64,000 nucleotides of DNA, taken from a virus. Lineage: Duplodnaviria > Caudoviricetes. Location: positions 1-64,000 of IMG/VR virus record IMGVR_UViG_3300037067_006949; one strand, given 5' to 3'. A program made the translations under genes and the position numbers. The stretch's first letter is position 1; each line of letters starts with the position of its first letter. The notes under the pieces were generated by a model. That model did not search any database, had not been told where the DNA came from, and saw nothing but the letters and a program-made list of their open reading frames with translations. Positions 1 through 56,472 of this stretch are shown here, one piece after another.

Positions 1-1
1 C

Positions 2-337
2 ATGAACTAATACAGTACTAGCACCAACTAAAGTGCTATCTCCAGTATATAAATATAATACATGAGTAGTTGAATTCCATCGTACAGACCCTAATGCTGT
101 ACCTCCCTTCATCCATTGCAATATAGTAACCTCAGGATAAGTAGTGATTGGGGCTACTGCAAGATTCCAGCGTACATAAATTTCTGATGAAGCGGGAATA
201 TATTTTCTAGCATAACCATTGCCAATACTATATCCGTAAACTCCAGTTTTATGCACAGTAGATACAGATGTTGCTATAGTAAGGTCAAAACTTAATGTGT
301 CTCCCATTTCTGCACCATCAGTAAATAATCTTGTCAT
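2..337 (-). CDS. Putative virion/tail-associated protein, truncated by the window edge (MTRLFTDGAEMGD...)
   Basis: Manual translation is open from ATG 337 to the window edge; beta-rich T/S/G composition; same strand as neighbouring structural-type genes. Confidence 0.6.
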   Translation of the reverse strand, partial: MTRLFTDGAEMGDTLSFDLTIATSVSTVHKTGVYGYSIGNGYARKYIPASSEIYVRWNLAVAPITTYPEVTILQWMKGGTALGSVRWNSTTHVLYLYTGDSTLVGASTVLVH

Positions 338-346
338 AATATTATC

Positions 347-694
347 CTATCTAAACCTAATGGTTAAATCTCTTATATAGATTAGCAATTTTGAGGTCAG
401 CACAAACAAACCACGCATATTGATAATTGCCAAAGCTGCTACTTTGAGCACAGTTCTCACATTGCCAAGAGCAGTATTAATTTGTGTAACATTCGCTGTA
501 GTAATATTCTTTATAGTTGCATTCTTGTAACTAGTGCCTTCTGTGGCCTTCAAAATTGCACCATCCATACCTGCGACGATGGCTTGAACCAAATTCATTA
601 TTCCCTGCCAATGACTTGCGTCACCGATCAATACTTTGCCGTCTTTGAAAATCGCCTCGCCGATGTTATGGCTGCTGAGATCGATCAGTTTCAT
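347..694 (-). CDS. Hypothetical protein (likely start MKLIDLSSH)
   Basis: GGAGG RBS just upstream of ATG 694; the longer 838 start overlaps the upstream gene. Confidence 0.65.
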   Translation of the reverse strand: MKLIDLSSHNIGEAIFKDGKVLIGDASHWQGIMNLVQAIVAGMDGAILKATEGTSYKNATIKNITTANVTQINTALGNVRTVLKVAALAIINMRGLFVLTSKLLIYIRDLTIRFR

Positions 695-707
695 TTGATC
701 CTCCTGC

Positions 708-1715
708 TTACCCAATCCCAAATTTATTTCTATAGAATGCCTCAACGCCCTCTCTATTTGCTTTTGAGAGAAATGTTGAAGAAGCAAATATTTCAGCAAT
801 CCATCCGGTAAAATATCCCGCCGCCGCTTGAAATGCACCTAGAAATACGGTAGAGGCAACGTTCAAGTCTGCGGCGCTGCTCGACCTGCTATATCCACAC
901 CATATTCCGTCGATAAATAGATTTATGAATGGAGTTGTTTTCTTTCTTGAGAACGTGATGATGTGAAACGCTCCATCGGCAATGAATTGTGTCCCGCGCA
1001 ATGTCGTTTCTGGGTTTCCTGTACCGGCACCGCCAGTTCCACCATCCCAAGTTAATGCCCAATCGTTTGCAACCCCTGCCGATTCAACACCAAAAATTCC
1101 TTTCTGGTTATACCAATATGCATCAGCTCCGTCTGTATTGATACTTGCTACCACGGCAATAATCGTCCAATCTCCTTCTAGTGGACGGCTGAGAGACATA
1201 ACTTTACTGCCGTTAAAATAAACTGCTGGCTGGCTGAAAGTTGTTTTATCCAGCGTTGGCTTTAATGCGGCATTGGATTGTGTAGCGTCCAATCCGCGCC
1301 CGCTCTGATCCGCCCAGGAGGCAACGGGGTCGTTGTGGTTTCCTGAGATGGTTCCTGCATCGAACCAGACCGCCTTATTTGCGACATCGCTAGGGTTGAC
1401 TTGGGTTATTCCCCCGCCGCCGCTTGGAACCGCCCCGCCGTCTTTTACTAATTTTCCTGATGTAGAATCAAAAACAACTAAGTGTCCATCAGTTGCACTA
1501 GCAGGGCCGATTACAGCATCTGGTGAACCAGCGTCTCCCCATAACGTACTTCCCGATCCATCAGAAATAAGGGCTAGACCAGAAGCGCTTGAGCCGCTAT
1601 CTATTCTCGTTGATTCAAGAGTACCTATATGGCTCGCGTTCCAGTCGGAAGGTAGTACCAAGTCGGCATTATCGCCATCCACGAATGTAGAAACTTTAGA
1701 ATGTAAAATTGCCAT
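708..1715 (-). CDS. Tail fibre/receptor-binding-like protein with C-terminal LamG/concanavalin A-like domain
   Basis: Gly/Ser linkers; WFDAG..V.SW.DQSG.G.DATQ...PT, V.F.G and F.G.IAEI motifs typical of phage LamG domains; GGAGG RBS. Confidence 0.7.
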   Translation of the reverse strand: MAILHSKVSTFVDGDNADLVLPSDWNASHIGTLESTRIDSGSSASGLALISDGSGSTLWGDAGSPDAVIGPASATDGHLVVFDSTSGKLVKDGGAVPSGGGGITQVNPSDVANKAVWFDAGTISGNHNDPVASWADQSGRGLDATQSNAALKPTLDKTTFSQPAVYFNGSKVMSLSRPLEGDWTIIAVVASINTDGADAYWYNQKGIFGVESAGVANDWALTWDGGTGGAGTGNPETTLRGTQFIADGAFHIITFSRKKTTPFINLFIDGIWCGYSRSSSAADLNVASTVFLGAFQAAAGYFTGWIAEIFASSTFLSKANREGVEAFYRNKFGIG

Positions 1716-1808
1716 AATAACCTCCTATAGAATGAATCTCCCTAAACAAAAGGAGGTCAAATTTTAAATTTTATGAGAAATTTTTTAATAAAAATATGTT
1801 TGCTTATA

Positions 1809-1841
1809 TTATTTTTTACCAGTTAAATCATTTTTATACAT
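1809..1841 (-). pseudogene. Remnant N-terminus of an HNH homing endonuclease gene (MYKNDLTGKK*)
   Basis: DLTGK matches the N-termini of the intact HNH genes at 4921 (DLSGQKFG) and 63437 (DLTGQRFG); preceded by the same RNA motif as the 4921 HNH gene. Confidence 0.55.
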
Positions 1842-1860
1842 ATGCGCTCTGAAGCTTTCT

Positions 1861-1938
1861 CTCTGAATAAAAATAAAAATGGGAAACTATCAGAGTTAGT
1901 TTGTCAATCGGATCATGACTTCCGATCTATCCCATTTT
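1861..1938 (-). ncRNA. Structured cis RNA motif, copy 1 (three-way junction plus pseudoknot)
   Basis: AAAAUGGG/CCCAUUUU; AUCGG-aagucaugau-CCGAU; AAACUA-acucuga-UAGUUU; loop CUCUGA complementary to downstream UCAGAG. Confidence 0.7.
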
Positions 1939-1966
1939 ATTTTTAAATATAAATAAAGAACAAAAC

Positions 1967-2602
1967 TTACGTTGGATCGCCTATTTGAATCTTCCCTCAA
2001 TTGTTACCCCATAGGCAACGGGGATAAGTCATTTCTGCTTATCTCTGCAATTTCTTTTGTTATAGTTGCAGGACAGACTATACCACAATCCACATAATGA
2101 ATTTTCATTCTTGGATTTCCCTTGGTAGTCGTTAGAGCGTATTAAAGAAAATAATTCTTTTATTGACGCTTCGGGATTGTCCACTTCTGGAGTTCCCCCG
2201 ATATTCGGGATTTTCTATATACATTACTGTATAAAGTCGCTATTTAGTTAACGAAGGAATATCTACAGTTCCCAAAGCAACAAGGTCTTGAGAAGTACAG
2301 GTCGTGACGTATCTTAAAGTCGAACCTGACGCAACCTCGACTAATGCTACGGCAAGCGCTGTGCCACCATTGGTAATTGGAACTCCAGCAGATGCCGTCA
2401 TCGTTAATTTTCTACCAAGAGCACCTGTTGCATCATCGGCTATCGCAAAAGAACCACTTGACATAGGTGTTCTTGCTAACATTAAATTGGTATAGGCATC
2501 TGCAAAAGTAGCAGGGCTACCACTACACACGCACATCCAATCACTTCCTGCTACGTAACTTAACGAAGCATCAATCATGGCGTTTGGGGCTAATTTTCCC
2601 AT
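1967..2602 (-). CDS. Virion-type protein interrupted by a group I intron (exon1 2602-2251, exon2 1995-1967; spliced 126 aa ending TVDIPSWKIQIGDPT)
   Basis: Removing 1996-2250 creates TCG T|GG AAG ATT CAA ATA GGC GAT CCA ACG TAA in frame. Confidence 0.8.
1996..2250 (-). mobile_element. Group I self-splicing intron, 255 nt, no internal ORF
   Basis: Exon ends in U with P1 UCGU/GCGA giving the U.G wobble; P-like AAUAUCGGGGAAC; Q-like AAUCCCGAAG; P7 GACUA/UAGUC; terminal omega-G. Confidence 0.85.
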
Positions 2603-2679
2603 TATTTACCTCCTAAATTTGTATTTGTGCCACTTGTAGAATCTTGAACTTCTAAAGTTACATGTTTATCGTCTGACAT
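2602..2679 (-). CDS. Small 25-aa ORF (MSDDKHVTLEVQDSTSGTNTNLGGK)
   Basis: GGAGG RBS; stop overlaps the next ATG (TAATG coupling). Confidence 0.5.
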   Translation of the reverse strand: MSDDKHVTLEVQDSTSGTNTNLGGK

Positions 2680-2704
2680 AATTCCTCCTAGAATTATTTA
2701 TATA

Positions 2705-2735
2705 TAAAAAAAAGGTTATAGTAAACTATAACCTT
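2705..2735 (-). terminator. Rho-independent terminator
   Basis: AAGGTTATAG-4nt-CTATAACCTT hairpin followed by a T-run on the minus strand. Confidence 0.7.
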
Positions 2736-2765
2736 GTACACACTTATTTTATTCGCTTAAAATGA

Positions 2766-3116
2766 CTATTCTATGGTTTTCAAATGAAATAAAACCCCCG
2801 CATTATACGTTGCTTGTAATTTAGCACTACCACTAGTGCCCAACCTCGCCTTTATAAAGTCGTAAGGTAAAAATGCGTTTGGGTCAACTGCATAAGTTCT
2901 AGAGGCGGACGTAACAGTTAAACTTAATTCTGTGCTGCTACTATTGTATGCAGAATAAAAATTTGTTCCATCTACCGAACCAAGGATTGTTACCAAACTA
3001 CCAGTAATGACGCTTCCAGTAATTGTTATTCCGGTCAATGTGTATAATTCATTAAGTTGTATCACGGCGGTTTCAGATGATCCAACTGCAAAAGTTCCGC
3101 TAACAGTTTTCTTCAT
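2766..3116 (-). CDS. Hypothetical beta-rich phage protein
   Basis: 116-aa ORF; GSVDGTNF motif common in virion accessory proteins. Confidence 0.6.
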   Translation of the reverse strand: MKKTVSGTFAVGSSETAVIQLNELYTLTGITITGSVITGSLVTILGSVDGTNFYSAYNSSSTELSLTVTSASRTYAVDPNAFLPYDFIKARLGTSGSAKLQATYNAGVLFHLKTIE

Positions 3117-3132
3117 ATTTTATAATCCTCCT

Positions 3133-4158
3133 TTAATTGGAGGAACTATCCTCCGGTTTAATTTTTAAATTTTCAAGTTCTTTCCACTTCCGATCTTTAA
3201 TTTCGAGATCGTTATATAATTTTGGCATTGATTCACTAGACCAACCCACAATTTCTTGTACCAACTCGCTTGGCAATCCTGCTTTAAAAAGCATTGTTGT
3301 AAAGTAATGCCTCAAACTATGTGCATAAAATGGCTTATTTACACATTTCTGTATTCTATTTACCCAACCTCTGGCTGTAGAGTCGTCTGCTGGAGAACCA
3401 TCTTTTTTTACAAAAAGAAATTCATGACTTTTACCAGTTTTATCTAATATTTTTTGACGCTCTTCTAACCATACGTTATACCTATTAATAAATACGTCTT
3501 TTAATATATATTTTACCAACATCTTTCCCGTACGGCCCCTACCCTTAGTACGAATTGATTTAGTAGTTTCTAAAAATATACCATTAAATGCGGTTCTGTT
3601 AATATCAATTAAATTTAATGAAAATCTTAAAAGTTCAGAAAACCTACATCCAGAAGCAATGGCCAATGCAAACCAACAGGCTATTTGATATTCTTTATCT
3701 TCTTCGAGTTGTTTAAAAATATCGCAAACCTCCTCCTCGGATAAGATTGTCTTATCTCTAGCTGGGTTTTTAGGCATTGATTCTATTGATTTCAAAATTA
3801 TATTTCTAAATTGGGGATGATCGTCATCTAAAAAACGTTCAACAAAATTGCTTAGAGAACTAAGACAACTTTTCATTCTTCCAAAACGAGCAGACCCAAA
3901 TCTCAATTCATCTGCACAAAACCCAAAAAAATCTGAAAAATCTAATTTTTTTATTTCGAAAAAAGATTTATTATTACAATACAATGCTCCCCAACAAAAA
4001 AATATGTTTAAGTCCGAAAAATATCCTTCTACGGTTGTATTGCTACTTCTAGTTTTCTTTTCTTTTAAAAAACTATCTCTTAGTTTTATATTTTCTGGAT
4101 TAACTTGATTTAATAGTTCGGGGGTCACGATGATTTTACGATATGTTTTGCGAGCCAT
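3133..4158 (-). CDS. Tyrosine recombinase/integrase family protein (SPbeta YomM/YopP-like)
   Basis: N-terminal SAM-like region; SGCRFSEL; KGRG; HSLRH; GW...LY catalytic tyrosine. Confidence 0.9.
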   Translation of the reverse strand: MARKTYRKIIVTPELLNQVNPENIKLRDSFLKEKKTRSSNTTVEGYFSDLNIFFCWGALYCNNKSFFEIKKLDFSDFFGFCADELRFGSARFGRMKSCLSSLSNFVERFLDDDHPQFRNIILKSIESMPKNPARDKTILSEEEVCDIFKQLEEDKEYQIACWFALAIASGCRFSELLRFSLNLIDINRTAFNGIFLETTKSIRTKGRGRTGKMLVKYILKDVFINRYNVWLEERQKILDKTGKSHEFLFVKKDGSPADDSTARGWVNRIQKCVNKPFYAHSLRHYFTTMLFKAGLPSELVQEIVGWSSESMPKLYNDLEIKDRKWKELENLKIKPEDSSSN

Positions 4159-4921
4159 CTGTAATTTTTATTACCCCCTTATTTTTTAAATTATTGTAGA
4201 TGTTTTCTATATATTGTATAAAATATTCTTTAGTATAATTACTTTTTGTATGATTACAAAATTTACAACAGGCGACTATATTTCCTGCAATATATCCAAC
4301 AGAATTATCTATTCTGTCTATACCATTATATAAATACTCTCCATACGTTGCTTTATTATTTTTAAAAACCTGATTTGGTTGTCTGCCACAATAATAACAA
4401 TTTTCACCAATGATTTTTTTAAATTCGTCTTTTGTAATTTCAAATATTAAATTGCGTTTCTTGGCATTCCTCATATAATTATCGAGAAGTTTATTAAAAG
4501 ATGATTCTCCATATATTCCATGCCTAAGACATCCACAAGAAGTTATTTTTCCGGTCTTCATATCATGCGCTGCACAAACTACAACATTTTTGTCTTCACA
4601 GTCGCATTGACATTTCCAATATGCTCCCCTATTATTCATATGATCTAATTCAATTACCGTCAAATTGCCAAAACTTTGTCCAGTTAAATCTATGAAATTT
4701 TTGTGACCAGCAACAGCACGGTTTTCTTCTCCAAGGCATCCACAAGAGCGAGTATTCCCTCTTCTCAAACTATGCCCCTTAACAACACACGGCTTATTAG
4801 AACAATCACATATGCAATTCCAATGTATAACCGTTTTGCCATTTTGTCTTATTCTATGCGATATATCAACAACCAATAATCTTCCAAATTTCTGTCCAGA
4901 TAAATCAATCAGCCTTCCCAT
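4136..4921 (-). CDS. Free-standing HNH homing endonuclease with duplicated N-terminal Cys-rich repeat
   Basis: Two DL(S/T)GQ.FG.L.V...W.C.CDC...SCGC repeats; CYYCG...NGIDRIDN..GY...N.V.CC..CN nuclease domain. Confidence 0.85.
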   Translation of the reverse strand: MGRLIDLSGQKFGRLLVVDISHRIRQNGKTVIHWNCICDCSNKPCVVKGHSLRRGNTRSCGCLGEENRAVAGHKNFIDLTGQSFGNLTVIELDHMNNRGAYWKCQCDCEDKNVVVCAAHDMKTGKITSCGCLRHGIYGESSFNKLLDNYMRNAKKRNLIFEITKDEFKKIIGENCYYCGRQPNQVFKNNKATYGEYLYNGIDRIDNSVGYIAGNIVACCKFCNHTKSNYTKEYFIQYIENIYNNLKNKGVIKITDGSQNIS

Positions 4922-4932
4922 TAATTTCCTCC

Positions 4933-5005
4933 AACTCCCAAATATAAAATGGGGAAGCGGGAGTTTCGCTTTTCAATTGGTTCATGACTTCCAATCTATC
5001 CCCAT
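4933..5005 (-). ncRNA. Structured cis RNA motif, copy 2, abutting the RBS of the HNH gene
   Basis: AUGGGG/CCCCAU; AUUGG-aagucaugaa-CCAAU; AAGCG-aaacucc-CGCUU; loop pairs with GGGAGUU next to the GGAGG RBS. Confidence 0.75.
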
Positions 5006-5021
5006 CTTTGTGTTACCATAA

Positions 5022-5333
5022 TTATTTATCCTCAACCGAGGGTTTGCTATTTTTCAATATTCTTTTCAACGTGACGCTAGGCGAAATAGTAAGCCTGTAA
5101 GTTGTATCCCTAAATTTCTCCACGCCCGTATGTAGATCGAATCCAGTGTGCGGAGCAATCTCATGCGCGTATACTTTAAACAATCCACCGATCACCAACT
5201 CATCATGAGAGGCAACCATTTCTTTTACAATTTCTTCAAAGGTATCGAACATAACCCTTACGTCACCTTGAGTAAAAGATGCTCTACTTGCAATTTCACG
5301 AATTATAAAGTCCTTGCCATATTTCTCTGTCAT
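5022..5333 (-). CDS. HU/IHF-family histone-like DNA-binding protein
   Basis: K..FI.EIA....FTQ.DV; L.IGGLF; G.D.HTG arm; F/I.PS..LK; adjacent to the YonO-like gene as in SPbeta (yonN). Confidence 0.85.
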   Translation of the reverse strand: MTEKYGKDFIIREIASRASFTQGDVRVMFDTFEEIVKEMVASHDELVIGGLFKVYAHEIAPHTGFDLHTGVEKFRDTTYRLTISPSVTLKRILKNSKPSVEDK

Positions 5334-5400
5334 TTTATTTCTCTCCTATTTTAGTATCTTAATACTCCATATACTCACGTGAATAATCTTATTAACATTT

Positions 5401-6192
5401 TCAAATTTTATATGAAGTTTTATTCCTTATTTGGCGCATACTTTTCTTACTGGATTCTCTTTGTCTTTTGCATAAATCTTTTTGATAGCATCGTTCACAT
5501 AAGTCATGTTTTTTTGATTTATTTTTAATTTTTCTTCCACACTTCTCGCAATAAAACGGATAAAACCCAACGACATCATTCATATTATTTACCGTTATGG
5601 CAATATTAGAATTTTCGAATACAAAATTGACCTTATAGCTAATATTTTTGCCCCTTGGATTAATCGTAGTAATCAATTCGCTTTGTTCTAAATCATATAA
5701 GATATCTTTGCGTTCAATCCTAGACACATTAACTTTAGCCATTTTCAAAACATTAATAAACGTATCATTAACATAAAAATCATTATCGTGTTCGCCACTG
5801 TTTTTTGGTGTCAATCTCGTATCGTTATATTTAAAATATTTAGCTATAACTAGCATTACAAATAATATCTTTTGCCTTTTATAGTCACCACAATTTTTTA
5901 TAATGTCTAATTCTGATTCGGTTACATTGACGTCTATTGGAAGCCTAAGCCCATATTCTTGAGAAGTATCAATGGCATCATTTATTTTTTTTCTAGATAA
6001 GATTTCATTGAAGTTGGGAACGAATTTTTTGCAAAAATCCAACAAGCTTTGTTTTATTTGTATTCTATTTTGACCAATGTATTTGAAATATTTGGCAAGC
6101 ACAGACAAATCTTGGTAATTCATAAAGGATGTAAAGCCATTTTTTAGTAATTTTTCAGCATGATCTTTTTCATAGAAAATCATAGATGTCAT
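5401..6192 (-). CDS. Hypothetical protein with C-terminal zinc finger, coupled to the RNAP gene
   Basis: CEKCG...CERC; overlaps the RNAP stop. Confidence 0.7.
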   Translation of the reverse strand: MTSMIFYEKDHAEKLLKNGFTSFMNYQDLSVLAKYFKYIGQNRIQIKQSLLDFCKKFVPNFNEILSRKKINDAIDTSQEYGLRLPIDVNVTESELDIIKNCGDYKRQKILFVMLVIAKYFKYNDTRLTPKNSGEHDNDFYVNDTFINVLKMAKVNVSRIERKDILYDLEQSELITTINPRGKNISYKVNFVFENSNIAITVNNMNDVVGFYPFYCEKCGRKIKNKSKKHDLCERCYQKDLCKRQRESSKKSMRQIRNKTSYKI

Positions 6193-8923
6193 CTGCTACG
6201 ATTTTTATCTCCTTTCTAGAATATTTTTTGCCCAAATATTCTATATCTCCATCATCATCTAAAAATGGTATTTCAATTTTCTTATTACCAATATTATTTT
6301 TTATATTATCTACTACGCCATCCCCAAAAATGCTCCATACAAATGCTTTATTATCCGATTCCAATGATACATAACATCTGGCTATAGCGTAATAAGCTAG
6401 TTCTCCCAAATCCGAAGATAACTTTAATGCCTCTTGACGAATTGATTTATTGTATTGTTCAATGGTTTGCCATCTGTTCTCGCCATCTTCGTTTTTTATA
6501 TTTCCAAAATTTCTTTTTTCTGATTTATATTTTTCGTGCAATAATATCAAGGCGTCAGATTTGGCATCATCCCAATCAGGAACATTTCGTTTTTTCATTA
6601 TATCTATAGAATTTTTATCCCAAGATAATTTAGAATTAACTTTTATTTCGCCAATTCTTTTTTGCATGTATTTAGAAATGCTATTTATCTCGCATGAAGT
6701 ATCAAGAAGAGGATTAAAGCGATAAAATTGCGCAAGAAATTCTTTTTGTTCGTCATCTAATAAATTTTTATCCATAGCAATCAGTTCACTCAAAAACATT
6801 TTGAACCTTGCCTGAGAAAGAATATCATAATTATAACAATGTTTCCTATAATCCTTTCCGTAGTTTGGATACAAATTTTCCATAAATTGAGGACGTTTTT
6901 CCACGAGAATAGAATTGTTAAAATTAGATTTATCAATTTCTTCTTGAGACATATCTTCTTTTATCTTTTGCCAATTTGACCATTGGGGAGGAATAGGGTT
7001 GACATCCAATCCCTTTGTTGAATCTATAATTGTTCCCTGTTGTTTTCTGCATTGCTTCAATCTGCGAATAATTTCTTTATATTCCAAAGAATTTTCTGCA
7101 AACATTGGCAGCATAGAATACATAGTCGTGCTAAGATTGGTCAAAAAACCCACCTTAGTATTAAAGCCCTTCAAATCTGCTTTATACAACTCTGACTCTA
7201 CAATCTTACATTTCGGCGCTTTTCGAGTTTCGTACATTACTGGTAATCCGCCATAAGCGCCATTTATTATTTCCTGTTGATTAGTGAGACACAGAATATC
7301 CCCGTCGAAATCGCATCCGCCAAACAGAGCCATATCTAATCCGTGTACATTTGTGATCAAACAACATTTTAAATATTTGTACCACCTTTGAATATCATCA
7401 TTGTTCTTCAAATCAAGCACATTTACTTCTGAGCGCCAAACAAGAGGCGATCTCATTCCCGCTATTCTGTTTACGCCCTTAGACAACCAATAATTGTTAT
7501 AATGTTCATTACGTTTTAATAATCCAACAATAGGTTGACCAAATATATATTCCAGCATAGCCAGCGGATCAGACGCAATAAATGTGTATTGCCCATCAAC
7601 AATCAAATTTCCAATATACGAATCTTTGATTTTGCGCCTAAGAGAATTTTGGATATGATTTTGAATGTATGGGTCTGTAATCAAATTATTGTCTAGCATC
7701 AATGCTTTAGTTACATTATCATTTATTTTATTAAAAATATTTTCATCATATTCTTTATCAATCTGCGCTCCCAATAGATAAAGTAACGTATAGTTTTTAT
7801 TTCCACTCATTACATTTTCAAAATATTCAACTGTTTTCGAGCACAAGGATTCTATTTGTTTTTGATCCAGATGCAATGCCTGTAAAAATTGGTAGTTCAA
7901 AAATGTATGTGTGTTTTCTTCTTTCGGAGTACAGCGTGTTACACCCCACCCTAAATTATTCTTACGGCATTTTTCCACATAGTCTTGCATAGAATCGAAA
8001 GCGTTCCAAAGTTTGAATTGCGAAGCGGTAAGAATGACATCCATATCCCGAATGTTTACATCATTACCATAAACATCTTTTACAATATGCTTACCAATCT
8101 CGTCTGAATACTCCATAAAGTCAATGACTGCCACCATTCCCTTGATGAAGTTACTCCGAATGATGAAAGCACCTGGTATGTAATCCAGCCCCAAGTCGTT
8201 TGCCCAAACTTCTGCCATCCTTGGAGAGATGATCCCCTGACCATCAAACAAATTAAACGTAAGTTCTTTTTCCGTAGGCTCAATGATGTCGTCTCCCCCG
8301 TCCACCTCTGTTACCCAATCCACAGTTTCTTTGCGCACAACCTCACAATCTGGAATGACACAAAAATAAGGAGTAGTTACCGGAAGAGCAGTAGATGATG
8401 CCAATGCAAAATAGGCGTTGAATTTTGCTGGTGTAATCTCAATGTCAGCACGATCATTATTCAGCACCCTCTTCAGTTCTTTTTCAATTTCAGCGTCTAC
8501 AAATAAAACATTGTTTCTTCTTGCTTGACCAGCGCTGCACATCAGCCTTACATATTTTTTGTTGTTTACAAATAAACCATGGCTAATAATATATTCGTAC
8601 TGTTTTACGTTCTTGACCACTAAAGAAATAATTTCGGATACAAAAAGAAGTTCATCAATTCTATTTTCTATATTGTATAAATCGAAGTTACCACCCTCAA
8701 CCCGCTTCAGATTATGTTTCTTGACCAACAACTCTTGCAGTTCATCAATATCGCCCGTCCTACCAGTAATTTCTCTCAACGTCCGAAGCATCTGGCTATC
8801 CCCAATACTTACCAGTTCTCCGTTCTTACGTGCTTGCCATGTATCTAATTGTATGTCGTAGTTATCTTGCTTGAGTCTATCTGTTGCTAACTTAAAAATG
8901 TGATATTGTTGCAACTTTATCAC
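6170..8923 (-). CDS. YonO-like single-subunit DNA-dependent RNA polymerase (cellular RdRP fold)
   Basis: GGCDFDGD catalytic loop; FDGQG; IRxxFIKG; SQFK; RSP motifs; 917 aa; upstream of virion genes. Confidence 0.88.
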   Translation of the reverse strand: MIKLQQYHIFKLATDRLKQDNYDIQLDTWQARKNGELVSIGDSQMLRTLREITGRTGDIDELQELLVKKHNLKRVEGGNFDLYNIENRIDELLFVSEIISLVVKNVKQYEYIISHGLFVNNKKYVRLMCSAGQARRNNVLFVDAEIEKELKRVLNNDRADIEITPAKFNAYFALASSTALPVTTPYFCVIPDCEVVRKETVDWVTEVDGGDDIIEPTEKELTFNLFDGQGIISPRMAEVWANDLGLDYIPGAFIIRSNFIKGMVAVIDFMEYSDEIGKHIVKDVYGNDVNIRDMDVILTASQFKLWNAFDSMQDYVEKCRKNNLGWGVTRCTPKEENTHTFLNYQFLQALHLDQKQIESLCSKTVEYFENVMSGNKNYTLLYLLGAQIDKEYDENIFNKINDNVTKALMLDNNLITDPYIQNHIQNSLRRKIKDSYIGNLIVDGQYTFIASDPLAMLEYIFGQPIVGLLKRNEHYNNYWLSKGVNRIAGMRSPLVWRSEVNVLDLKNNDDIQRWYKYLKCCLITNVHGLDMALFGGCDFDGDILCLTNQQEIINGAYGGLPVMYETRKAPKCKIVESELYKADLKGFNTKVGFLTNLSTTMYSMLPMFAENSLEYKEIIRRLKQCRKQQGTIIDSTKGLDVNPIPPQWSNWQKIKEDMSQEEIDKSNFNNSILVEKRPQFMENLYPNYGKDYRKHCYNYDILSQARFKMFLSELIAMDKNLLDDEQKEFLAQFYRFNPLLDTSCEINSISKYMQKRIGEIKVNSKLSWDKNSIDIMKKRNVPDWDDAKSDALILLHEKYKSEKRNFGNIKNEDGENRWQTIEQYNKSIRQEALKLSSDLGELAYYAIARCYVSLESDNKAFVWSIFGDGVVDNIKNNIGNKKIEIPFLDDDGDIEYLGKKYSRKEIKIVADDIYDFL

Positions 8924-8940
8924 TCATGACCTCCAATGAT

Positions 8941-9165
8941 CTATTCGTACTCTTTTCTTACAAATTCATCCCATTCTGATTCTTCGCCATAATCCAATAT
9001 ATCTTCTGTATATTTATTATAGCTGAACTCCTTCCATGCAACACCATATGGTAAACAATTAAAATCAATATCAATAAAATCGTAACAAATAAGACCTTCA
9101 CTCTGTAATTGTTTTTCACGTGGAGTGCAGTTGTCAAATTGATTGCAACGATTGCACTCTGTCAT
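8941..9165 (-). CDS. Small Cys-rich hypothetical protein
   Basis: CxxCxxxxxC; RBS GGAAGGA. Confidence 0.55.
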   Translation of the reverse strand: MTECNRCNQFDNCTPREKQLQSEGLICYDFIDIDFNCLPYGVAWKEFSYNKYTEDILDYGEESEWDEFVRKEYE

Positions 9166-9168
9166 TTT

Positions 9169-9651
9169 TTATTCCTTCCTTTCTTGTATTTTGATTGCTT
9201 TATATTTGTTTCTTCCTAGGTCAACAATATTGTCATGCAAGATGGTTTCTCCACATTCAATACACGGAATGGCTTCCCAATCCCCATGAGCCACCCTGAT
9301 TTCTTTACCACAGTACGGACAAGCAAAGCACATCACATCTTCATCTGCCATACGTTCCGCCTTACAGTAAGGACAGTTACAAGGTTCGCCTTCACCAGGC
9401 CAATTCAAAATATCTACACCAGCAACTTCTTGGATAGCTACGATATTGTAAATGTCGTCCCCAAAAGTTTCGTCCAGCATGGCAATAGCTTCGTCTACGG
9501 CTGTTTCAAAATTATCGCATCCTAACTGAAGATGGGTATCTACATGTTCCATCATATCTTGCTCTTCTTCAAACTCCCCTTCTAATGAACCATCCATTAT
9601 TTCAGGTTTTACTTCTCGATCAAAGGTATATTCTATATCATATAACTTCAC
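9169..9651 (-). CDS. Acidic zinc-ribbon protein
   Basis: CNCPYC, CPYCG, CIECG; GGAGG RBS. Confidence 0.7.
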   Translation of the reverse strand: MKLYDIEYTFDREVKPEIMDGSLEGEFEEEQDMMEHVDTHLQLGCDNFETAVDEAIAMLDETFGDDIYNIVAIQEVAGVDILNWPGEGEPCNCPYCKAERMADEDVMCFACPYCGKEIRVAHGDWEAIPCIECGETILHDNIVDLGRNKYKAIKIQERKE

Positions 9652-9758
9652 AAAGCCTCCACAATGAACTACAACGAATTTATTTTACAATTACTTATAT
9701 TTTACCACTATCTTACTCAAAACCCCACAGCGCCTTTCCTGTGAAGTCTGGTGGCATT

Positions 9759-9956
9759 CTAGCCACCGTTCCGCAACTGCTCATAATCTTTTTGTTGTTC
9801 CAAATAATCAATCAAATTAAGTTGCTGTTCCATGGAATCCATGATATTTTCTTGTCTTTCTATATGATCAATCAGCGCTAATACCAACTCTGAAGGTATC
9901 AAAGAATTCTTTTTAGCCATTTCTTGCCATTCTGAAATTGTAATTTTGTCAAGCAT
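9759..9956 (-). CDS. Hypothetical coiled-coil protein, first gene of the leftward operon
   Basis: GGGAGG RBS; directly downstream of the leftward promoter. Confidence 0.55.
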   Translation of the reverse strand: MLDKITISEWQEMAKKNSLIPSELVLALIDHIERQENIMDSMEQQLNLIDYLEQQKDYEQLRNGG

Positions 9957-9982
9957 ATTTCCTCCCTTCTATAAGATACTTG

Positions 9983-10011
9983 ACTATACCACAGTTATCT
10001 GATTTTGTCAA
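9983..10011 (-). promoter_or_regulatory. Sigma70-type promoter driving the leftward RNAP operon
   Basis: TTGACA-17-TATAGT with TGTGG extended -10. Confidence 0.75.
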
Positions 10012-10045
10012 GGTTAAAATAGGTAGCAGTTATGAATTAGTAATA

Positions 10046-10086
10046 TCGTAACCCGTCAGTTTTAGCCATTTAGTGACGGGTTACGA
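10046..10086. repeat. 13-bp perfect inverted repeat between divergent promoters
   Basis: TCGTAACCCGTCA-15nt-TGACGGGTTACGA. Confidence 0.8.
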
Positions 10087-10099
10087 AAAAAAATGAGAC

Positions 10100-10128
10100 T
10101 TGACAGATTAGAGATTATGTGGTAGTAT
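10100..10128 (+). promoter_or_regulatory. Sigma70-type rightward promoter
   Basis: TTGACA-17-TAGTAT with TGTGG extension. Confidence 0.7.
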
Positions 10129-10138
10129 TATGTTTCAA

Positions 10139-10218
10139 GCTGGACTAGATTGGCTTAATTACCCAATGACAAACTAGCGAATGTCTCCGCGCTAAGTCCA
10201 GCATATTATTTTGGAGAT
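10139..10218 (+). ncRNA. Structured cis RNA motif, copy 3 (5' leader)
   Basis: GCUGGAC/GUCCAGC; UAG; AUUGG/CCAAU; GACAAAC; UAGCG/CGCUA; loop UCUCC pairs with downstream GGAGA. Confidence 0.65.
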
Positions 10219-10248
10219 TAAACACATTCTATATAAGGAGAGAGCAAA

Positions 10249-10437
10249 ATGTATTATATTGGTGAAATATCTTATGAGCCTAATGCGCCTGGTGGAGTAT
10301 TGATAGAATTATGGGATGGTGGATCATATCGCTACCCAATACAAGCAAAAAGAAAAATAGAAGAAATAGAAAAAGAATATGGCAATTGTCATCTTCAAAT
10401 CATTGACGACAAAAAATACGATATGGGTTGGGAATAA
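10249..10437 (+). CDS. Hypothetical protein
   Basis: AAGGAG RBS; 62 aa. Confidence 0.55.
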   Translation: MYYIGEISYEPNAPGGVLIELWDGGSYRYPIQAKRKIEEIEKEYGNCHLQIIDDKKYDMGWE

Positions 10438-10466
10438 ATTTTAATGAAAATCAAAAGAGACAATAA

Positions 10467-11405
10467 ATGACAGAAAATAATTATGCTTTAAGGAATGATT
10501 CCTATGCCACACAACCCCAACCACCCATTGACTATTTGATCAGCGATCTGATAACTAATTCTAGTTTAAATGTTTTTTATGGGGAGGCTGGAAGTAAAAA
10601 AACATATAGCGCTCTCAGCATGGCAGTAGCAGTTGCCAACGGAAGAGATTGGTTAGGATTCAAAACAAGAAAATCTCCCGTTCTCATTATAGATGAAGAA
10701 AGTGGCGAGAAAAGACTTTCAAGAAGGTTAAATGAAACCATGAAGGGCGCAGATTGTGAAAGTACCGGACAACTCTATTTTATTTCTTTAGCGGGATTTA
10801 AGTTAGACAAAAAAGAAGATGTGAGAACCATAGAATCCGAAATTAATAAAATTGGAGCCAAACTAATCATATTTGATGCTTTGGCAGACATTATGGATGG
10901 TGACGAAAACAGCAAAAAGGATGTCCAGCCAGTCATGAATAATCTAAGGAAGATGGCAGACAATACCGACTCTTCCATTGTTCTTATTCATCATGCTAAT
11001 AAAGGTGGAGGATATCGTGGTTCAACTGCAATCAAAGCAAGTTCTGATCTTATGGTTCAGGTTACTTCTGATTTAGATGATTCTGTTATCAATTTCAAAA
11101 CTGAAAAGAATAGAGATGGCTCTTATATTAGTTGGAGCGCAGAAGCTACTTGGGAGGACGATATTTTTTACCTACAATTGACATCTCCAGTACAACGATC
11201 AAGCAGCAGAGAAGAATATGTGTTAGGATTTCTAAAAGAAAATGGAGAATCTACTATTGCTGAAATTATTAAAAATCCTGTTGGATGTACGGCTCAAGGA
11301 GCTAGAAAAGCAATTTTTAGTTTAGCTAAATCTGGGGATATTATTAGAACTAATTCTAATGAAAAAACTAAAACAGCTATTTATAAAATCGTAGAAAGAA
11401 GGTAG
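10467..11405 (+). CDS. AAA_25/RepA-like (RecA-fold) ATPase/helicase with possible C-terminal winged helix
   Basis: YGEAGSKKT Walker A variant; LIIDEE; LIIFD; IHH.NK...YRGS; K.RD. Confidence 0.85.
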   Translation: MTENNYALRNDSYATQPQPPIDYLISDLITNSSLNVFYGEAGSKKTYSALSMAVAVANGRDWLGFKTRKSPVLIIDEESGEKRLSRRLNETMKGADCESTGQLYFISLAGFKLDKKEDVRTIESEINKIGAKLIIFDALADIMDGDENSKKDVQPVMNNLRKMADNTDSSIVLIHHANKGGGYRGSTAIKASSDLMVQVTSDLDDSVINFKTEKNRDGSYISWSAEATWEDDIFYLQLTSPVQRSSSREEYVLGFLKENGESTIAEIIKNPVGCTAQGARKAIFSLAKSGDIIRTNSNEKTKTAIYKIVERR

Positions 11406-11509
11406 TACCCCTTAGTACCACCTATAGTACCCATGTTATTTAAAACAGCCAAGACCTAGTACCCACCCCTACGTAGTAGGGGGGAGGTACTAAGGGTACG
11501 AGGGTATTA
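11403..11509. repeat. Iteron-like TAGTACC cluster (4 direct, 1-3 inverted copies)
   Basis: TAGTACC at 11403, 11413, 11425, 11457; GGTACTA at 11486 and degenerate copies after it. Confidence 0.65.
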
Positions 11510-11644
11510 GTTCGATTATATTTTTATATAGAAAGGATAAAAGATGTTTTTTATATGTTCTATAATTTTGATTGCATTGATCGTTATTATAATGGATTCC
11601 AATAGATAACTCCATATATATAAGTATTTAATAATATTTTACCT

Positions 11645-11680
11645 AAAATCACCTTGATAATACCATAAGGTGATTTTTTT
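11645..11680 (+). terminator. Rho-independent terminator
   Basis: AAAATCACCTT...AAGGTGATTTT hairpin plus T-run. Confidence 0.7.
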
Positions 11681-12303
11681 ATTTAATTTGCTATATTACG
11701 TAGCGTAGAAATATATGCGTATATGTTACCCATAATTTTAAAAATTTTGATATGTATATAAGGGGGATATGATAGATGTATGTATAGATATGTTTTGGAT
11801 AGTTTTATTTTTTTTAATTTTAAGAAGTTGTGTGGATAGATGTGCTGTAGGGCGCGTTTCATTTCTGCCGTTTGCTGACTATGTAAAATAGGGCATATAT
11901 CTTATGATTATATCTATAATAATCATAGGCTATGATCATCCTGGTATGACTCAGGACATGGTATGGATCATCTTAAGTATTAACCATGGTTTAAGGTTTT
12001 TGGTTTAAATCCGATAACATGAAAAAATTCGAGGAAGTAATTTTTTTAAAAAATCAATCTACCAGGATAATAATAAGATAATAATAGTCCTATTATCTAT
12101 CATGCATGATAATCTATATAATACAATAAATAATATTAATATTATTATCAATAAACATTAATATTATTAACTTAAGTATTAAGTTAATGTATAATACAAT
12201 GCATAATCATTCATATAATCAATACTGATATAAACAATCTATCATATATTGTCTTGTATCAAGGCTGCCCATGGTAGAATATCTTATTATCCTGATAGCA
12301 GAC

Positions 12304-12337
12304 AAAAAAAATAACCTTCCTATTATGGAAGGTTATT
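12304..12337 (-). terminator. Rho-independent terminator
   Basis: AATAACCTTCC-tattat-GGAAGGTTATT plus T-run on the minus strand. Confidence 0.75.
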
Positions 12338-12356
12338 CAATCTAGCAATCAATCTG

Positions 12357-12755
12357 TTATTGGTTAAGTGACCTATCAATCATGCTTAAGAATATTGCCA
12401 ATGCATCGTTGGTATAAAATCTATGGCACTTCGCGTTCTGATTACTGATATATTCCAATAAAATAAGCGTTCGTTCTGGGAGTGAAGTATAATCACTTGA
12501 GTGTTCAGGATATCTATAGTAAACTTCGCGTTCTTTAATCAACACTTGAAAATTCATTGAGTGTTTACTGTTTTCAATAGTAAAATTGATATATTGGTTT
12601 TCTTGATAGTATTCGATATTACTAAACCATTCAATACCCAATTTTTTTAAGTGCTTAATCAATTCTGCTTTAGCCAAAATAGCGTCGTTCGTGTTTTGAT
12701 TGTTTTCATATTTCGAATCCAGCAATGTTAAGGTTTTCATTTTAGCATTCTCCAA
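12357..12755 (-). CDS. Hypothetical protein
   Basis: 132-aa ORF ending just before a terminator. Confidence 0.6.
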   Translation of the reverse strand: MENAKMKTLTLLDSKYENNQNTNDAILAKAELIKHLKKLGIEWFSNIEYYQENQYINFTIENSKHSMNFQVLIKEREVYYRYPEHSSDYTSLPERTLILLEYISNQNAKCHRFYTNDALAIFLSMIDRSLNQ

Positions 12756-12793
12756 TTCTGTATTTATGATATTACTTGATTATCGAATAGGTT

Positions 12794-13111
12794 CTATCCC
12801 ATCATGTTATTTTTAGTCAGAACGTCTTCGATCAATTCAAAAATGATGCGCGGTATATTCAATAATTCAGCAGTGTTTAATCCGATGGTGTGAGTCTGGA
12901 AGTTGTCATTTTTGTTTGAAAAATAGCTATAGACTTCCAGTTGATTTTTGGCCTTGTTAGCGCAAAAAATGAATTCCATATGGCTAGCGTCAAAAACAAT
13001 ATATGGCATATTTTTCGTTTTTGAAAATAATACGCTCTCATCATTCGAATTCAGTATGCATTCATAAAGCGTATCTAGCAGTTTATTTTTGTTAATCCGT
13101 TTTTTGTTCAT
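12794..13111 (-). CDS. Hypothetical protein
   Basis: 105-aa ORF. Confidence 0.6.
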   Translation of the reverse strand: MNKKRINKNKLLDTLYECILNSNDESVLFSKTKNMPYIVFDASHMEFIFCANKAKNQLEVYSYFSNKNDNFQTHTIGLNTAELLNIPRIIFELIEDVLTKNNMMG

Positions 13112-13252
13112 TTTATCCCATCCATCCTGAAAATTTATTTTCCTGATAAAAACCGATTAATCATCCGTATCATAGGGACGACTAAAAATGCTAAAACAAG
13201 TGCTGAGATAATTAGGGTCGAGAGTGTTAAGGGTTCGATTGTCATTTTTTTT

Positions 13253-13522
13253 TCAGTCTCCGTCCTGATTTTTCATGACTAGCATATAAATGTCTTTTTC
13301 CCAAAATTCAAAGCCGTTCGGAGTCGCGAGAGTCAATTTTGCTTTTCCGATTTTGCAAAAATTGCCATTGGCCGATTTTTGAAACCAAGTCGCGCGTTTC
13401 AATTCCGCACATTCGACCTTGACGAACATTTGAGGACGATAAGCGTCACGTTCGATAATTTGAAAATCCGATATTTTGATCCAATTTATATAGGGGTTCG
13501 TACTTGATCCTCTAGTTGTCAT
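13253..13522 (-). CDS. Hypothetical protein (start MTTRGSS)
   Basis: GGAGG RBS; TTGCAA...TATAAT promoter upstream. Confidence 0.6.
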   Translation of the reverse strand: MTTRGSSTNPYINWIKISDFQIIERDAYRPQMFVKVECAELKRATWFQKSANGNFCKIGKAKLTLATPNGFEFWEKDIYMLVMKNQDGD

Positions 13523-13892
13523 AATACCTCCCTTCGATGACTTAATTATAATCCATTTTTTGATTTTGCAACAAACAATATTTAAAATTTTAAGATTCGA
13601 TTTTTTCGTATTCAAAAATAGGCAATTTTGCCAATTATCATACCTTAAAATTTTTTAAGGTTTAAGCATTTTCTTAAGAATTGGCGCTTTATTTGGGATT
13701 TTTTTAGCCCAAATTTTTTAGATTTTTTAAGAATTGAAAAATTCGTATTCAAAATTGGTCATTTTTGCGCATTCTTTTATAATGTGATTTTTAAGTTTAA
13801 GACACATTCTTAAAAAATCTTAAGGTATAATCCGCGTGTTTTTTGATTGATTTTGGTATTCCATTATAAGGATCAACCGCGCGAATTCTGAC

Positions 13893-14024
13893 GCGTCCCA
13901 ACCTTCCGGCGTCCTGATTGCCCATGGGTCAGCGTCCCAACCTTCCGGCGTCCTGATTGCCCATGGGTCAGCGTCCCAACCTTCCGGCGTCCTGATTGCC
14001 CATGGGTCAGCGTCCCAACCTTCC
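13893..14024. repeat. 39-bp GC-rich perfect tandem repeat, about 3.4 copies
   Basis: GCGTCCCAACCTTCCGGCGTCCTGATTGCCCATGGGTCA at 13893, 13932, 13971 and a partial copy at 14010. Confidence 0.95.
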
Positions 14025-16046
14025 TTATACGTTAACGCGCGTCAATATATGGTTAACGCATAACGGTTAACGGTTAACAAAAAATGATTAACAAATAACA
14101 GTTATAAAATAGTAATTTTATGATAAAAAATTATAACCAAAAAATAACCGTAAAACGTGTAGGAAGGCTTTTCAACTTTAAAGGTATAAACATGCCAACA
14201 TACCATTTTTAAAGCCTTGCAAGCCTTCCTGCGAGATTCTTAAAATATAGAACACGCCAGAATAACAATTCATTCTATAAAATCGTATTCAAAAAATGAT
14301 CATTTTAGAAAATAACCTTAAAAAATTCTGTGTATTTAAAACCAAAAATTACCAAAAATTTTTAGAATTCTAATGTAATTTTCTATGATTTTTATGCTAC
14401 AATCTAATCAAGAAGAGAGAAAAAACAGAATAACATAAAATCCATATTTTAAGCAGAATGGGAGAAAATAAAATGACTAAAGAAAATTACGTTATAGGCG
14501 ATAAAGTTGAAAACATAGTAGAATTAACAATTGACAATCTAGAAAATACTATTATCCCCGTTGGTACTACATTAAGAATCGTTGCAATTGCGCCTAAGGT
14601 ATGCATGATGAAAAAAGATTTATATCATGACGGATTACCAAATTTTTTTAATGCCGTTATATTCGATCAAGAGAATGATTATTATAATCGCATTCGCGCT
14701 AATTTTTGTACGATTAGGAAAGCGCAATAACAGTATTATAATTTTATCCAATGGCTAGAATCAACGTGTAACACGTAATGCGCATTCTAGCCATCCAATA
14801 AGGTTATAATCTTGTAGCCAGTATAACGAAGGGATAAAACAGAATGCCAAAAAATGTTATAAATGAAAAAACATATATTCCAAAAAGAATCTGGATTATG
14901 CCAGAATATGGCCAACCATGGGCGGCGGACGTATTAAGAACGTATGACAATAACACTATTGCTATAGTGCATCCAGATAATGCGCAGGAAGATGATACAA
15001 GAAAAATCGACCTTGAAAATACAGGATGGGCAAGTTTAGACAATAACCAGGATAAAATAGAATGAAAAAATCAATTAACAAAAAATGGCAATTGAATACC
15101 AATGAGGCGCGAAGGTATAACCGGAAAATTGAACGGATCAACAAACAAGAACGGTTAAAATTTTTGACAACGATTAAATTTTAATTCGATCATATAACAG
15201 GATGTTTAAAATCCATCCTGTTATAAAATGGAAGTAAAATTTAAAGAATGGAAAAAAAATAATGTATACCTTGAATAAAGAAAAAACAGAATTATATTAT
15301 ATATGAGGAAATAGACGCGGAATTATACTTAAATGATAGCGGATTAATCGACGTTGAAAAAAGCGGTTTAAAGACTATATAATTTTTGAATGGAGAATAA
15401 ACAAAATGAAAACAGAATTAAAGGATTTTATAAAATCTCATTATCTTGAAAATTGTAAACAAAAACATTACAATCTAAAATCATCCGAAGAGGTTATTAA
15501 TTGGTTTTTTAACAGGTTCGACAATTTTAATAACTATGTAAATTTTCTTGAGAGTCATAATAGCTATTTTCACGCGGTAACAAAAAATCCGCAAGTAGAA
15601 TATGCATGTCAGAATTCAGGACTTGATTATTTTTATATCATAGGATTAATTGAATTTTGGTGTAATCAGAATAACACGCCAATGTATAACGCATAAAATA
15701 AAGATTTTAAGCATAACAGGAGGGCTTAAAAAATGGCTGACAAACAGTTTGAAAAACGCGGTAATAAAGCATATTTAACATATTCTGATTATGATTTTTT
15801 CGAACCAAGAATCATTATATCATTATGGGAGATTAAAAATTTAGATATCACGTTATTACCAGACAATCCATTTATTTATAAAAATAACGGTTTATATTTT
15901 GCAAAAACAGAATATAAAGATTATCCGCTTTATATTGAAGACTTACCAACATTAACAGAATTCATAACAGTTAAACCGCCAAGAAAAGGCGGTTATAGAT
16001 GGAATAATGGAGAATGGAAAAGGATATAACAGAATCTTAAAAAATG

Positions 16047-16074
16047 TTGACAACCGCTTAAAACGGCTTATAAT
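16047..16074 (+). promoter_or_regulatory. Sigma70-type promoter
   Basis: TTGACA-16-TATAAT. Confidence 0.7.
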
Positions 16075-17237: not shown

Positions 17238-17265
17238 TTGACAATGGTTAATAACGTGCTATAAT
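17238..17265 (+). promoter_or_regulatory. Sigma70-type promoter
   Basis: TTGACA-16-TATAAT with TG extension. Confidence 0.75.
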
Positions 17266-29930: not shown

Positions 29931-30003
29931 GCCCTTGTAGCTCAATTGGATGAGTGCTCGCCCTCTAAGCGAAGGGATATAGGTTCAAGCCCTATCAGGG
30001 GCA
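29931..30003 (+). tRNA. tRNA-Arg(TCT), atypical (C33, one anticodon-stem mismatch, no CCA)
   Basis: GCCCTTG/CAGGGGC acceptor; TAGCTCAATTGG D-arm; GGTTCAAGCCC T-arm; loop CCTCTAA. Confidence 0.75.
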
Positions 30004-50714: not shown

Positions 50715-50789
50715 GGTGAATGTGGCGAAATTGGCAAACGCGCCGCTCTGTGGATGCGGATATTGAGAGTTCAAGTCTCTTCATTCACC
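50715..50789 (+). tRNA. tRNA-His(GTG) with encoded G-1
   Basis: G-1:C73; GTGAATG/CATTCAC; TGGCGAAATTGG; loop CTGTGGA; GTTCAAGTC; own promoter at 50676. Confidence 0.85.
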
Positions 50790-56398: not shown

Positions 56399-56472
56399 GG
56401 ACTTATAGCTCAATGGTTAGAGCGTCCGTCTTATACGCGGCAGGTTTGGTTGTTCGAGTCAACCTAAGTCCA
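56399..56472 (+). tRNA. tRNA-Ile(TAT)
   Basis: GGACTTA/TAAGTCC; TAGCTCAATGGTTAGAGC; loop CTTATAC; GGTTG-TTCGAGT-CAACC; A73. Confidence 0.85.

Follow-up and report, generated by a model that had tools for sequence, protein, structure and literature searches.

The described RNA that most resembles the element reported here is int-alpA RNA (Rfam RF02996), an orphan motif that reportedly comes from the survey of 224 motifs by Weinberg et al. in 2017. It is expected in the interval between an integrase gene and the gene for an alpA-type regulator, and the literature that we found naming int-alpA describes no function for the RNA. The motif is not discussed in the main text of the 224-motif survey (PMC5737381). 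We analyzed the first 64 kb (hereafter, the window) of the 125,426-bp IMG/VR virus record IMGVR_UViG_3300037067_006949, in which a small branched RNA occurs three times in 5' leaders. We call these copies c1, c2 and c3. Judging from a sub-threshold but full-length match to RF02996, the window motif is a divergent variant of this catalogued orphan motif, with a long P2 helix, and not a new kind of RNA. The reading that we favor, with a probability of roughly 55%, is that each copy acts in cis, as a 5' leader by which translation of the following gene is throttled.

Other described leaders resemble the window motif in part. The C4 RNA of phages P1 and P7 and the CI RNA of satellite P4 are antisense-like RNAs that are processed and act in trans. 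Like the window motif, they are small branched leader RNAs whose loops are complementary to repeated downstream sites, one of which lies at the ribosome-binding site (RBS). However, two loops and two paired sites are involved in C4, and a single loop with two sites in the window form. In the repZ/repA leader of I-complex plasmids, for which Rfam lists a PK-repZ family, a hairpin loop likewise pairs beside the RBS of a replication initiator and sets the level of translation. The plasmid pseudoknot activates and is opposed by a separate antisense RNA, while the window motif is a three-way junction with no antisense gene evident. Portable leaders that limit or time selfish nucleases, and that recur at cassette borders, are represented by the RBS-sequestering hairpins of T4 I-TevI and Aeh1 mobE and by the T4-type PeSL cassettes. 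These are simple hairpins, without the conserved junction, decoy site or palindromic loop of the window form.

The three copies had been proposed from inspection of the sequence, as a three-way junction with a pseudoknot, and they were borne out. The pattern TAGATYGG..CCRAT..GAMAA has exactly three matches in the window, namely c1, c2 and c3, and none in 100 shuffles. The minimum-free-energy fold of each is a three-way junction in which P1 closes two hairpins (z-scores of -3.4, -1.7 and -1.8). The elements follow the same order in all three: P1, UA(G), P2, (Y)GAMAA(G), P3, one or two bases and P1', followed by a U-rich stretch and a complement of the P3 loop. Since GAMAA is preceded by a Y with which the G of UAG can pair, the junction can be written as UA / GAMAAG, as in the Rfam int-alpA consensus.

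To describe the individual copies we use three covariance models (R1, R2 and R3), which were seeded from three equal-length copies and bootstrapped since MAFFT misaligned the 3' half of the motif. Copy c1 occupies 1876-1938 on the minus strand, with P1 formed by 1930-1938 and 1876-1884 and the UAG at 1927-1929. It is recovered by pattern, fold and covariance models (60.5 bits with R1, 71.1 bits with R2), and has AAGUCAUGA as its P2 loop and ACUCUGA as its P3 loop. Copy c2, at 4946-5008 on the minus strand, is likewise identified by pattern, fold and covariance model (93.7 bits with R1); its P2 loop is AAGUCAUGAA and its P3 loop AAACUCC. Copy c3 lies on the plus strand at 10139-10202, with 10139-10145 pairing with 10196-10202 as P1. 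Its P2 loop is CUUAAUUAC, with the core UAAUUA, and its P3 loop contains UCUCC. In addition to the pattern and fold, it is matched by a covariance model, although weakly (R2, 18.7 bits, E-value 0.013 to 0.022); R1 was too narrow and missed it. Over the whole record, covariance-model searches raise the number of copies to five, adding 122616-122677 (minus strand) and 124832-124894 (minus strand), both beyond the window. A weak covariance-model match at 104183-104246 was rejected as a plain terminator hairpin.

Relatives came from pattern scans of IMG/VR, and all counts from these scans refer to the matches listed. The first, general scan gave mostly chance matches. Covariance models confirmed the motif in 95 of 95, 40 of 42 and 79 of 82 loci, and in about 20 loci found earlier. 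Thus searched, as the sequence-only reading had suggested doing with phage genomes, the motif is confirmed in at least about 230 phage contigs; it is also present in Bacillus phage vB_BanS-Thrax2 (Thrax2), and it is maintained in phages of 33% to 65% GC. Megablast of 12 kb against GenBank phages gave no match, nor did blastn with a GC-rich copy.

The covariation claimed for the stems is strong in these relatives. In alignment A9, which holds 29 diverse sequences, 96.0% of the cells in paired columns are paired, compared with 62.0% in shuffles and at most 52% in slid controls, and all 18 of the 18 pairs have changed on both sides. Alignment A7 gives 93.7% against 77.7% in shuffles, with compensatory changes in 16 of 18 pairs, and alignment A12, for which the P2 loop was left free in the scan, gives 94.5% against 81.3%. 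While the stems covary, hardly any change is seen in the bases of the junction or in the closing pairs of P2 and P3; one G-C pair is present in 82 of 82 sequences. The pseudoknot leaves a signal of its own: the longest Watson-Crick match of the P3 region averages 6.13 nt with its own tail, but 4.35 nt with non-cognate tails. A three-way junction with a loop-to-tail pseudoknot, located in 5' leaders and covarying across hundreds of homologues, is supported by these observations.

That the motif belongs to no named family, as was first thought, is correct only at the level of Rfam's own cut-offs. At gathering level there is no relevant match in the 64-kb window, and over 12 kb there is none at E-values up to 10. 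When the isolated motif was searched, int-alpA emerged: c2 matches RF02996 with 22.9 bits (E-value 0.0035) and a GC-rich relative (locus L172) with 21.0 bits (E-value 0.012), the cut-off being 35.8 bits. These alignments are full-length (model positions 1-71), and all helices and both junction words are in register. Relatives of the window form score 23.8 to 33.5 bits, and canonical int-alpA copies, at 38 to 76 bits, were obtained from 12 of the 151 genomes sampled in one class. Model R3 misses one canonical copy. The two forms have in common P1, UA, P2, GAAAAG, P3, CU, P1', a U-rich stretch and an AgGG purine site, and in the canonical form, too, the P3 loop matches both a proximal site and the RBS zone. 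Examples of such canonical site pairs are UAAGGC and AAGGUG in Escherichia coli D5, and GAUUC and GAUUCAA in locus L439. The forms differ in P2, which in canonical int-alpA is short (GCCC-GACG-GGGC or similar; the consensus has 4 bp and a loop of about 4-5 nt), whereas in the window form it has 5-6 bp and a loop of 9-10 nt.

They also differ in context. Rather than the expected int-alpA interval, the window copies precede an HNH gene, a possible relic open reading frame (ORF) and an AAA_25 operon. More generally, the hosts of the window form are large lytic-type phage contigs and Bacillus phages, and the genes concerned are replication initiators and homing endonucleases. One canonical int-alpA copy also precedes an HNH gene. 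With at least about 230 phage contigs and cultured Bacillus phages, the int-alpA-like family reaches far beyond integrative islands. A canonical copy is found in an integrative island of E. coli D5 (locus L464; NZ_CP010145.1, 3192428-3199471), just behind the integrase gene; the order of elements is int, the int-alpA RNA, a hypothetical gene, a helix-turn-helix regulator, antA/antB, DUF4222 and an icd-like inhibitor. This gene set is reminiscent of the immI operon of phage P1, an operon under the control of C4 RNA.

The position of the motif relative to its transcript is well defined in many relatives. Of 119 distinct upstream regions, 77 have a TAnAAT box that ends 5-6 nt ahead of P1. In Thrax2, a perfect promoter, TTGACA-17-TATACT, lies three bases before the motif, and c3 has a sigma-70-type promoter with a TG element (TTGACA-17-TAGTAT; 10100-10128, plus strand) that would start transcription about 3-5 nt before P1. 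In four cases, in the tRNA array of contig G001 and in locus L131, P1 begins 1-3 nt after a tRNA gene. From these boxes, promoters and tRNA-abutting copies, we conclude that the RNA usually begins with the fold itself. A search just upstream of c1 and c2 gave no consensus promoter, so both may be transcribed by read-through from upstream genes. At the other side of the motif, the distance from the end of P1' to the AUG is 23-36 nt in the family set, most often 28-31 nt. P1' itself ends in UUUC, and the four bases that follow are 70-90% U, against a background of 27%.

The P3 loop (L3) has two matching sites in this tail. It had been proposed that each P3 loop is complementary to a downstream segment near the RBS. 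The complements are present in all three copies, but this first site (T1) is not the RBS itself; in c3, about 31 nt separate it from the AUG. A second loop-matching site, T2, is found nearer the AUG in c1, c2 and c3. In c1, both T1 (1861-1866, minus strand) and T2 (1847-1852, minus strand) read UCAGAG, the complement of CUCUGA in the P3 loop, and T2 is 5 nt before the AUG of a 10-codon ORF. In c2, T1 is GGGAGUU (4933-4939, minus strand), which pairs with AACUCCC of P3, and T2 is contained in the Shine-Dalgarno (SD) sequence GGAGG (4928-4932, minus strand), 6 nt before the AUG at 4919-4921, where the loop matches GGAG. In c3, both sites are GGAGA, the complement of UCUCC: T1 at 10213-10217 and T2 at 10237-10241 (plus strand), the latter within the SD sequence AAGGAGAG, before the AUG at 10249.

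Two sites are frequent in the family as well. Counting sites of at least 5 bp, 98% of cognate leaders have at least one and 46% at least two, compared with 46% and 10% of non-cognate pairs. The 3' ends of the sites cluster at -23 to -16 and at -12 to -1 relative to the AUG, and T1 always lies beyond the U tract that follows P1'. Some duplicated targets are not SD sequences, e.g., UAAACGC, which occurs twice in locus L088, GAGUUGG and GAGUUGGUA in Thrax2, and a 14-nt repeat in locus L225. Many members pair the 3' half of the loop with the proximal site and its 5' half with the distal one, from which it follows that the two pairings are mutually exclusive. The five copies of the virus record carry five different L3/T pairs. 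Ideas based on CsrA sites or on mimicry of 16S rRNA were dropped, as several members have no GGA or other relevant words.

The long P2 arm of the window form ends in a loop of 9-10 nt that contains a self-complementary hexamer. Among 153 distinct copies from a scan in which P2 was left free, the loop cores are UCAUGA (72), GAUC types (28), (G)UAGCUA(C) (23), UAAUUA (9) and the non-palindromic UUGCU types (9); AT-rich copies add UAAUUA (as in c3), UUAUAA and UAGCUA. A palindrome of at least 6 nt is present in 18 of 26 distinct loop types, where 2.4 are expected and the maximum in 5000 shuffles is 9. The hexamer thus changes between members yet stays palindromic, and five palindromic central tetramers are represented: CAUG, AGCU, AAUU, GAUC and, in a copy of contig G001, UAUA. 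In one copy (locus L284) the P2 loop is not palindromic. No partner for the loop, such as a second copy of the core, was found nearby in cis, with 5 matches upstream and 5 downstream against about 10 expected per side. Three loop bases precede the palindrome and one follows it, so the symmetry center of the palindrome is not that of the P2 stem. An RNA kissing loop is therefore a better fit than a DNA operator.

The dimerization initiation site (DIS) of HIV-1 is a kissing loop of similar anatomy: a 9-10-nt loop with a self-complementary hexamer and unpaired flanking purines, which varies between lineages yet remains palindromic (PMC7357161, PMC5874298). The window form shares with it an apical-loop hexamer that is kept self-complementary through change. 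However, the two differ in molecule, biology and host, the dimer of the window form is only predicted, and its palindrome is not family-wide.

Under the reading that we favor, the compact three-way junction would present L3 to two mutually exclusive sites in the tail. T1 would be a proximal decoy, its 3' end about 20 nt before the AUG, and T2 would be the ribosome-binding zone at -12 to -1. Pairing of L3 with T1 would form the pseudoknot and leave the RBS free, while pairing with T2 would hide the RBS. The balance between these states might be set or sensed by the conserved junction (UA, GAMAAG) together with the P2 loop, whose self-complementary hexamer suggests tip-to-tip pairing of two leader RNAs. 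What the sequences show is a covarying fold at the 5' end of the transcript, two sites that match one loop and a fixed spacing to the AUG. From this we infer that ribosomes are blocked by T2 pairing, that the leader alternates between the two states and that dimers form through the P2 loops. Among the functions offered by the sequence-only reading, translational control fits the anatomy best, because the AUG spacing is fixed and the loop is complementary to both a decoy and the RBS zone.

Several observations weigh against this reading. When G-U pairs are allowed, the excess of T2 matches is modest (5.39 nt, compared with 4.83 nt for non-cognate tails), and many T1 and T2 sites are purine-rich, SD-like words that would match a pyrimidine-rich loop anyway. 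Part of the two-site signal is therefore a generic likeness to anti-SD and SD sequences. The tail of c3 is longer than that of the family set, with 46 nt to the AUG, and the gene behind the c1 leader is gone. As for the P2 loop, in about 15% of the GC-rich subfamily it can extend the stem instead (GGGA-UUGA-UCCC) or is non-palindromic (UUGCU types), and many canonical int-alpA members have a plain GACG loop; dimerization can therefore not be essential to the family. The same layout is found throughout the family: a position at the 5' end of the transcript and one loop that matches both a decoy and the ribosome-binding zone. The long-armed form adds a tip loop that remains self-complementary as it changes. 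If the design works as it looks, it would be a compact, programmable RNA brake that doses replication initiators and homing endonucleases in phages, and would include a rare case of functional message dimerization in bacteria. The question can be put directly to the test with the Thrax2 leader, for which there are a perfect promoter and a cultured relative of the host.

A related but distinctly unlikely idea is that the leader is a dosage sensor made of RNA only. Accumulating messages, or short terminated copies of the junction, would join by their P2 loops; with T1 and T2 of a single message taken up by the two P3 loops, the RBS of that message would be hidden. If true, genes for replication initiators and selfish nucleases would be shut off in a concentration-dependent manner with neither a protein nor a separate antisense gene, and immunity to related superinfecting phages might result. 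A doubtful alternative gives the junction a life of its own as a trans-acting small RNA in the manner of C4 of phage P1 and CI of P4. Transcription would often stop at the U tract and release a junction RNA of about 70 nt that lacks T1 and T2, and this RNA would bind messages made by read-through; L3 of the message would hold T1, L3 of the free RNA would hold T2, and the P2 loops would join, leading to dose-dependent shut-off or immunity. The enrichment of U at +1 to +4 after P1', and the fact that T1 is always beyond this tract, agree with such a stop, although the stem before the tract closes a branched junction and not a simple hairpin, the U runs are short (mostly 3-5) and the tract of the E. 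coli copy is weak. Two sites for one loop and self-complementary P2 loops would also be expected of this RNA, but T1 and T2 occur even where P2 has a plain GACG loop. The five different L3/T pairs in the five copies of one genome speak for it, as does Rfam, where the entry type of int-alpA is 'Gene; sRNA'. Finally, the E. coli island with a canonical copy has ant and icd-like genes downstream, like the immI operon of phage P1, yet the Rfam C4 model (RF01695) has no match at E-values up to 10, either in the 12 kb or with isolated motifs.

The near invariance of the junction and of its closing G-C pairs could instead mean that they bind a small molecule or a host protein, which would decide between L3-T1 and L3-T2 pairing. 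Conservation of the motif over a wide range of GC contents is in line with this proposal, and a decoy next to an RBS zone resembles the expression platform of a riboswitch. We consider it quite improbable, however: the nucleases, replication initiators, methylases and antirepressor downstream share no metabolite logic, no Rfam riboswitch family matches the window or the isolated motifs, and the context offers no candidate ligand or protein. It is very improbable that the fold serves as a 5'-terminal protective structure, like exoribonuclease-resistant RNAs or 5' stabilizers, against 5'-end-dependent decay (by RNase J1, or by RppH with RNase E), with the pseudoknot needed for stability and not for switching. 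Such a role would explain why the motif begins at +1 or just after the 3' end of a tRNA. In exonuclease-resistant RNAs (xrRNAs) of flaviviruses, a three-way junction is combined with pairing between L3 and the 3' tail, and this topology is present in the window motif. What the motif does not have is the 5' strand that threads the xrRNA ring; since P1 is at, or a few bases from, the 5' end of the transcript, there is no upstream strand to form one. A simple hairpin would suffice for protection, and this role would not explain why the AUG is at a fixed distance of 23-36 nt, why a second site lies in the RBS zone or why the P2 loop is palindromic. Least credible of all is a signal in the DNA (an operator, recombination or homing site) or a self-cleaving ribozyme, in place of a folded regulatory RNA. 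Repetition at cassette borders (5 copies here and 4 in contig G001), the same leader before different nuclease genes, and P2 cores that are palindromic like restriction or operator sites might all be read in this way. On the other hand, G-U pairs and freely covarying stems argue for RNA, and the different symmetry centers of P2 stem and loop are unsuited to a dimeric DNA-binding protein. A ribozyme had been among the functions first suggested, and nothing was found in its support: models of self-cleaving ribozymes (hammerhead, twister, twister-sister, pistol, hatchet and HDV-like) have no match up to an E-value of 10 in the 12 kb or with isolated motifs, and there is no conserved core of the cleavage type, the junction being UA / GAMAAG and not CUGANGA / GAAA. 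Readings of the motif as a hammerhead, a tRNA-like structure or a retron were dropped; their cores do not fit by eye, and ARAGORN does not call the motifs.

The genes behind the leader were tabulated for 120 distinct downstream proteins, a set that is biased by the search patterns used. Sixty of them match DUF1376, about 90 match PHROGs for primosomal or replication-initiation proteins, and about 20 are HNH or GIY-YIG nucleases; the others include AAA_25 proteins, methylases, an antirepressor and Mom. The proposal that the RNA travels with the endonuclease thus holds in so far as nuclease genes are among those served, but most of the collected copies precede replication initiators. The c2 leader recurs almost unchanged in another contig (locus L138), after the same HU gene but before a GIY-YIG nuclease gene and not an HNH gene, so the leader is portable.

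In the window, two of the three predicted downstream contexts were confirmed. The intact HNH homing-endonuclease gene (261 aa; 4136-4921, minus strand) behind c2 matches PHROG HNH families (phrog_374 and others, E-value 1e-27), although a Pfam scan of the protein gave no match. Behind c3 is an operon (10249-11405, plus strand) comprising a 62-aa ORF (10249-10437) and then the gene of an AAA_25 replicative ATPase (10467-11405). The HNH remnant proposed behind c1 could not be substantiated. The only ORF there is the 10-codon MYKNDLTGKK* (1809-1841, minus strand), which might be a relic of an HNH gene, but this is not demonstrable: it has only DLTG-K in common with HNH N-termini, and the tblastn E-value of 6.6 is not significant. 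Behind the two copies outside the window are genes for a GIY-YIG/NUMOD3 nuclease and for a 201-aa protein whose paralogues match HNH_3.

Some neighboring features are worth recording. Directly upstream of c2 is an HU-like gene (5022-5333, minus strand), and the order of HU gene, leader and nuclease gene is common to the window, Thrax2 and L138. Directly downstream of the HNH gene of c2 is a tyrosine integrase gene (3133-4158, minus strand; Phage_integrase, E-value 2.5e-22). The gene that follows the decayed c1 cassette (708-1715, minus strand) encodes a 335-aa virion-type protein (phrog_10356, with a weak match to Laminin_G_3) and has its own SD sequence, and an ORF resembling GH25 endolysins is located at 347-838. 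The promoter of c3 is one of a divergent pair (9983-10011, minus strand, and 10100-10128, plus strand), the other of which serves the operon of a 917-aa ORF (6170-8923, minus strand) that matches the Pfam family RdRP (PF05183, E-value 1e-18), as expected of a single-subunit RNA polymerase of the YonO type. Between the two promoters, at 10050-10083, an inverted repeat (aacccgtca..tgacgggtt) with a run of A after it looks like a minus-strand terminator. Contig G001 (locus L169) has, at positions 1-17631, 25 densely arrayed tRNA genes that all share one strand. Inserted between these tRNAs are four cassettes of leader plus HNH gene, and three of these leaders begin 2-3 nt after a tRNA 3' end. The window itself has three tRNA genes, at 29931-30003, 50716-50789 and 56399-56472 (plus strand; Rfam tRNA, 55-62 bits).

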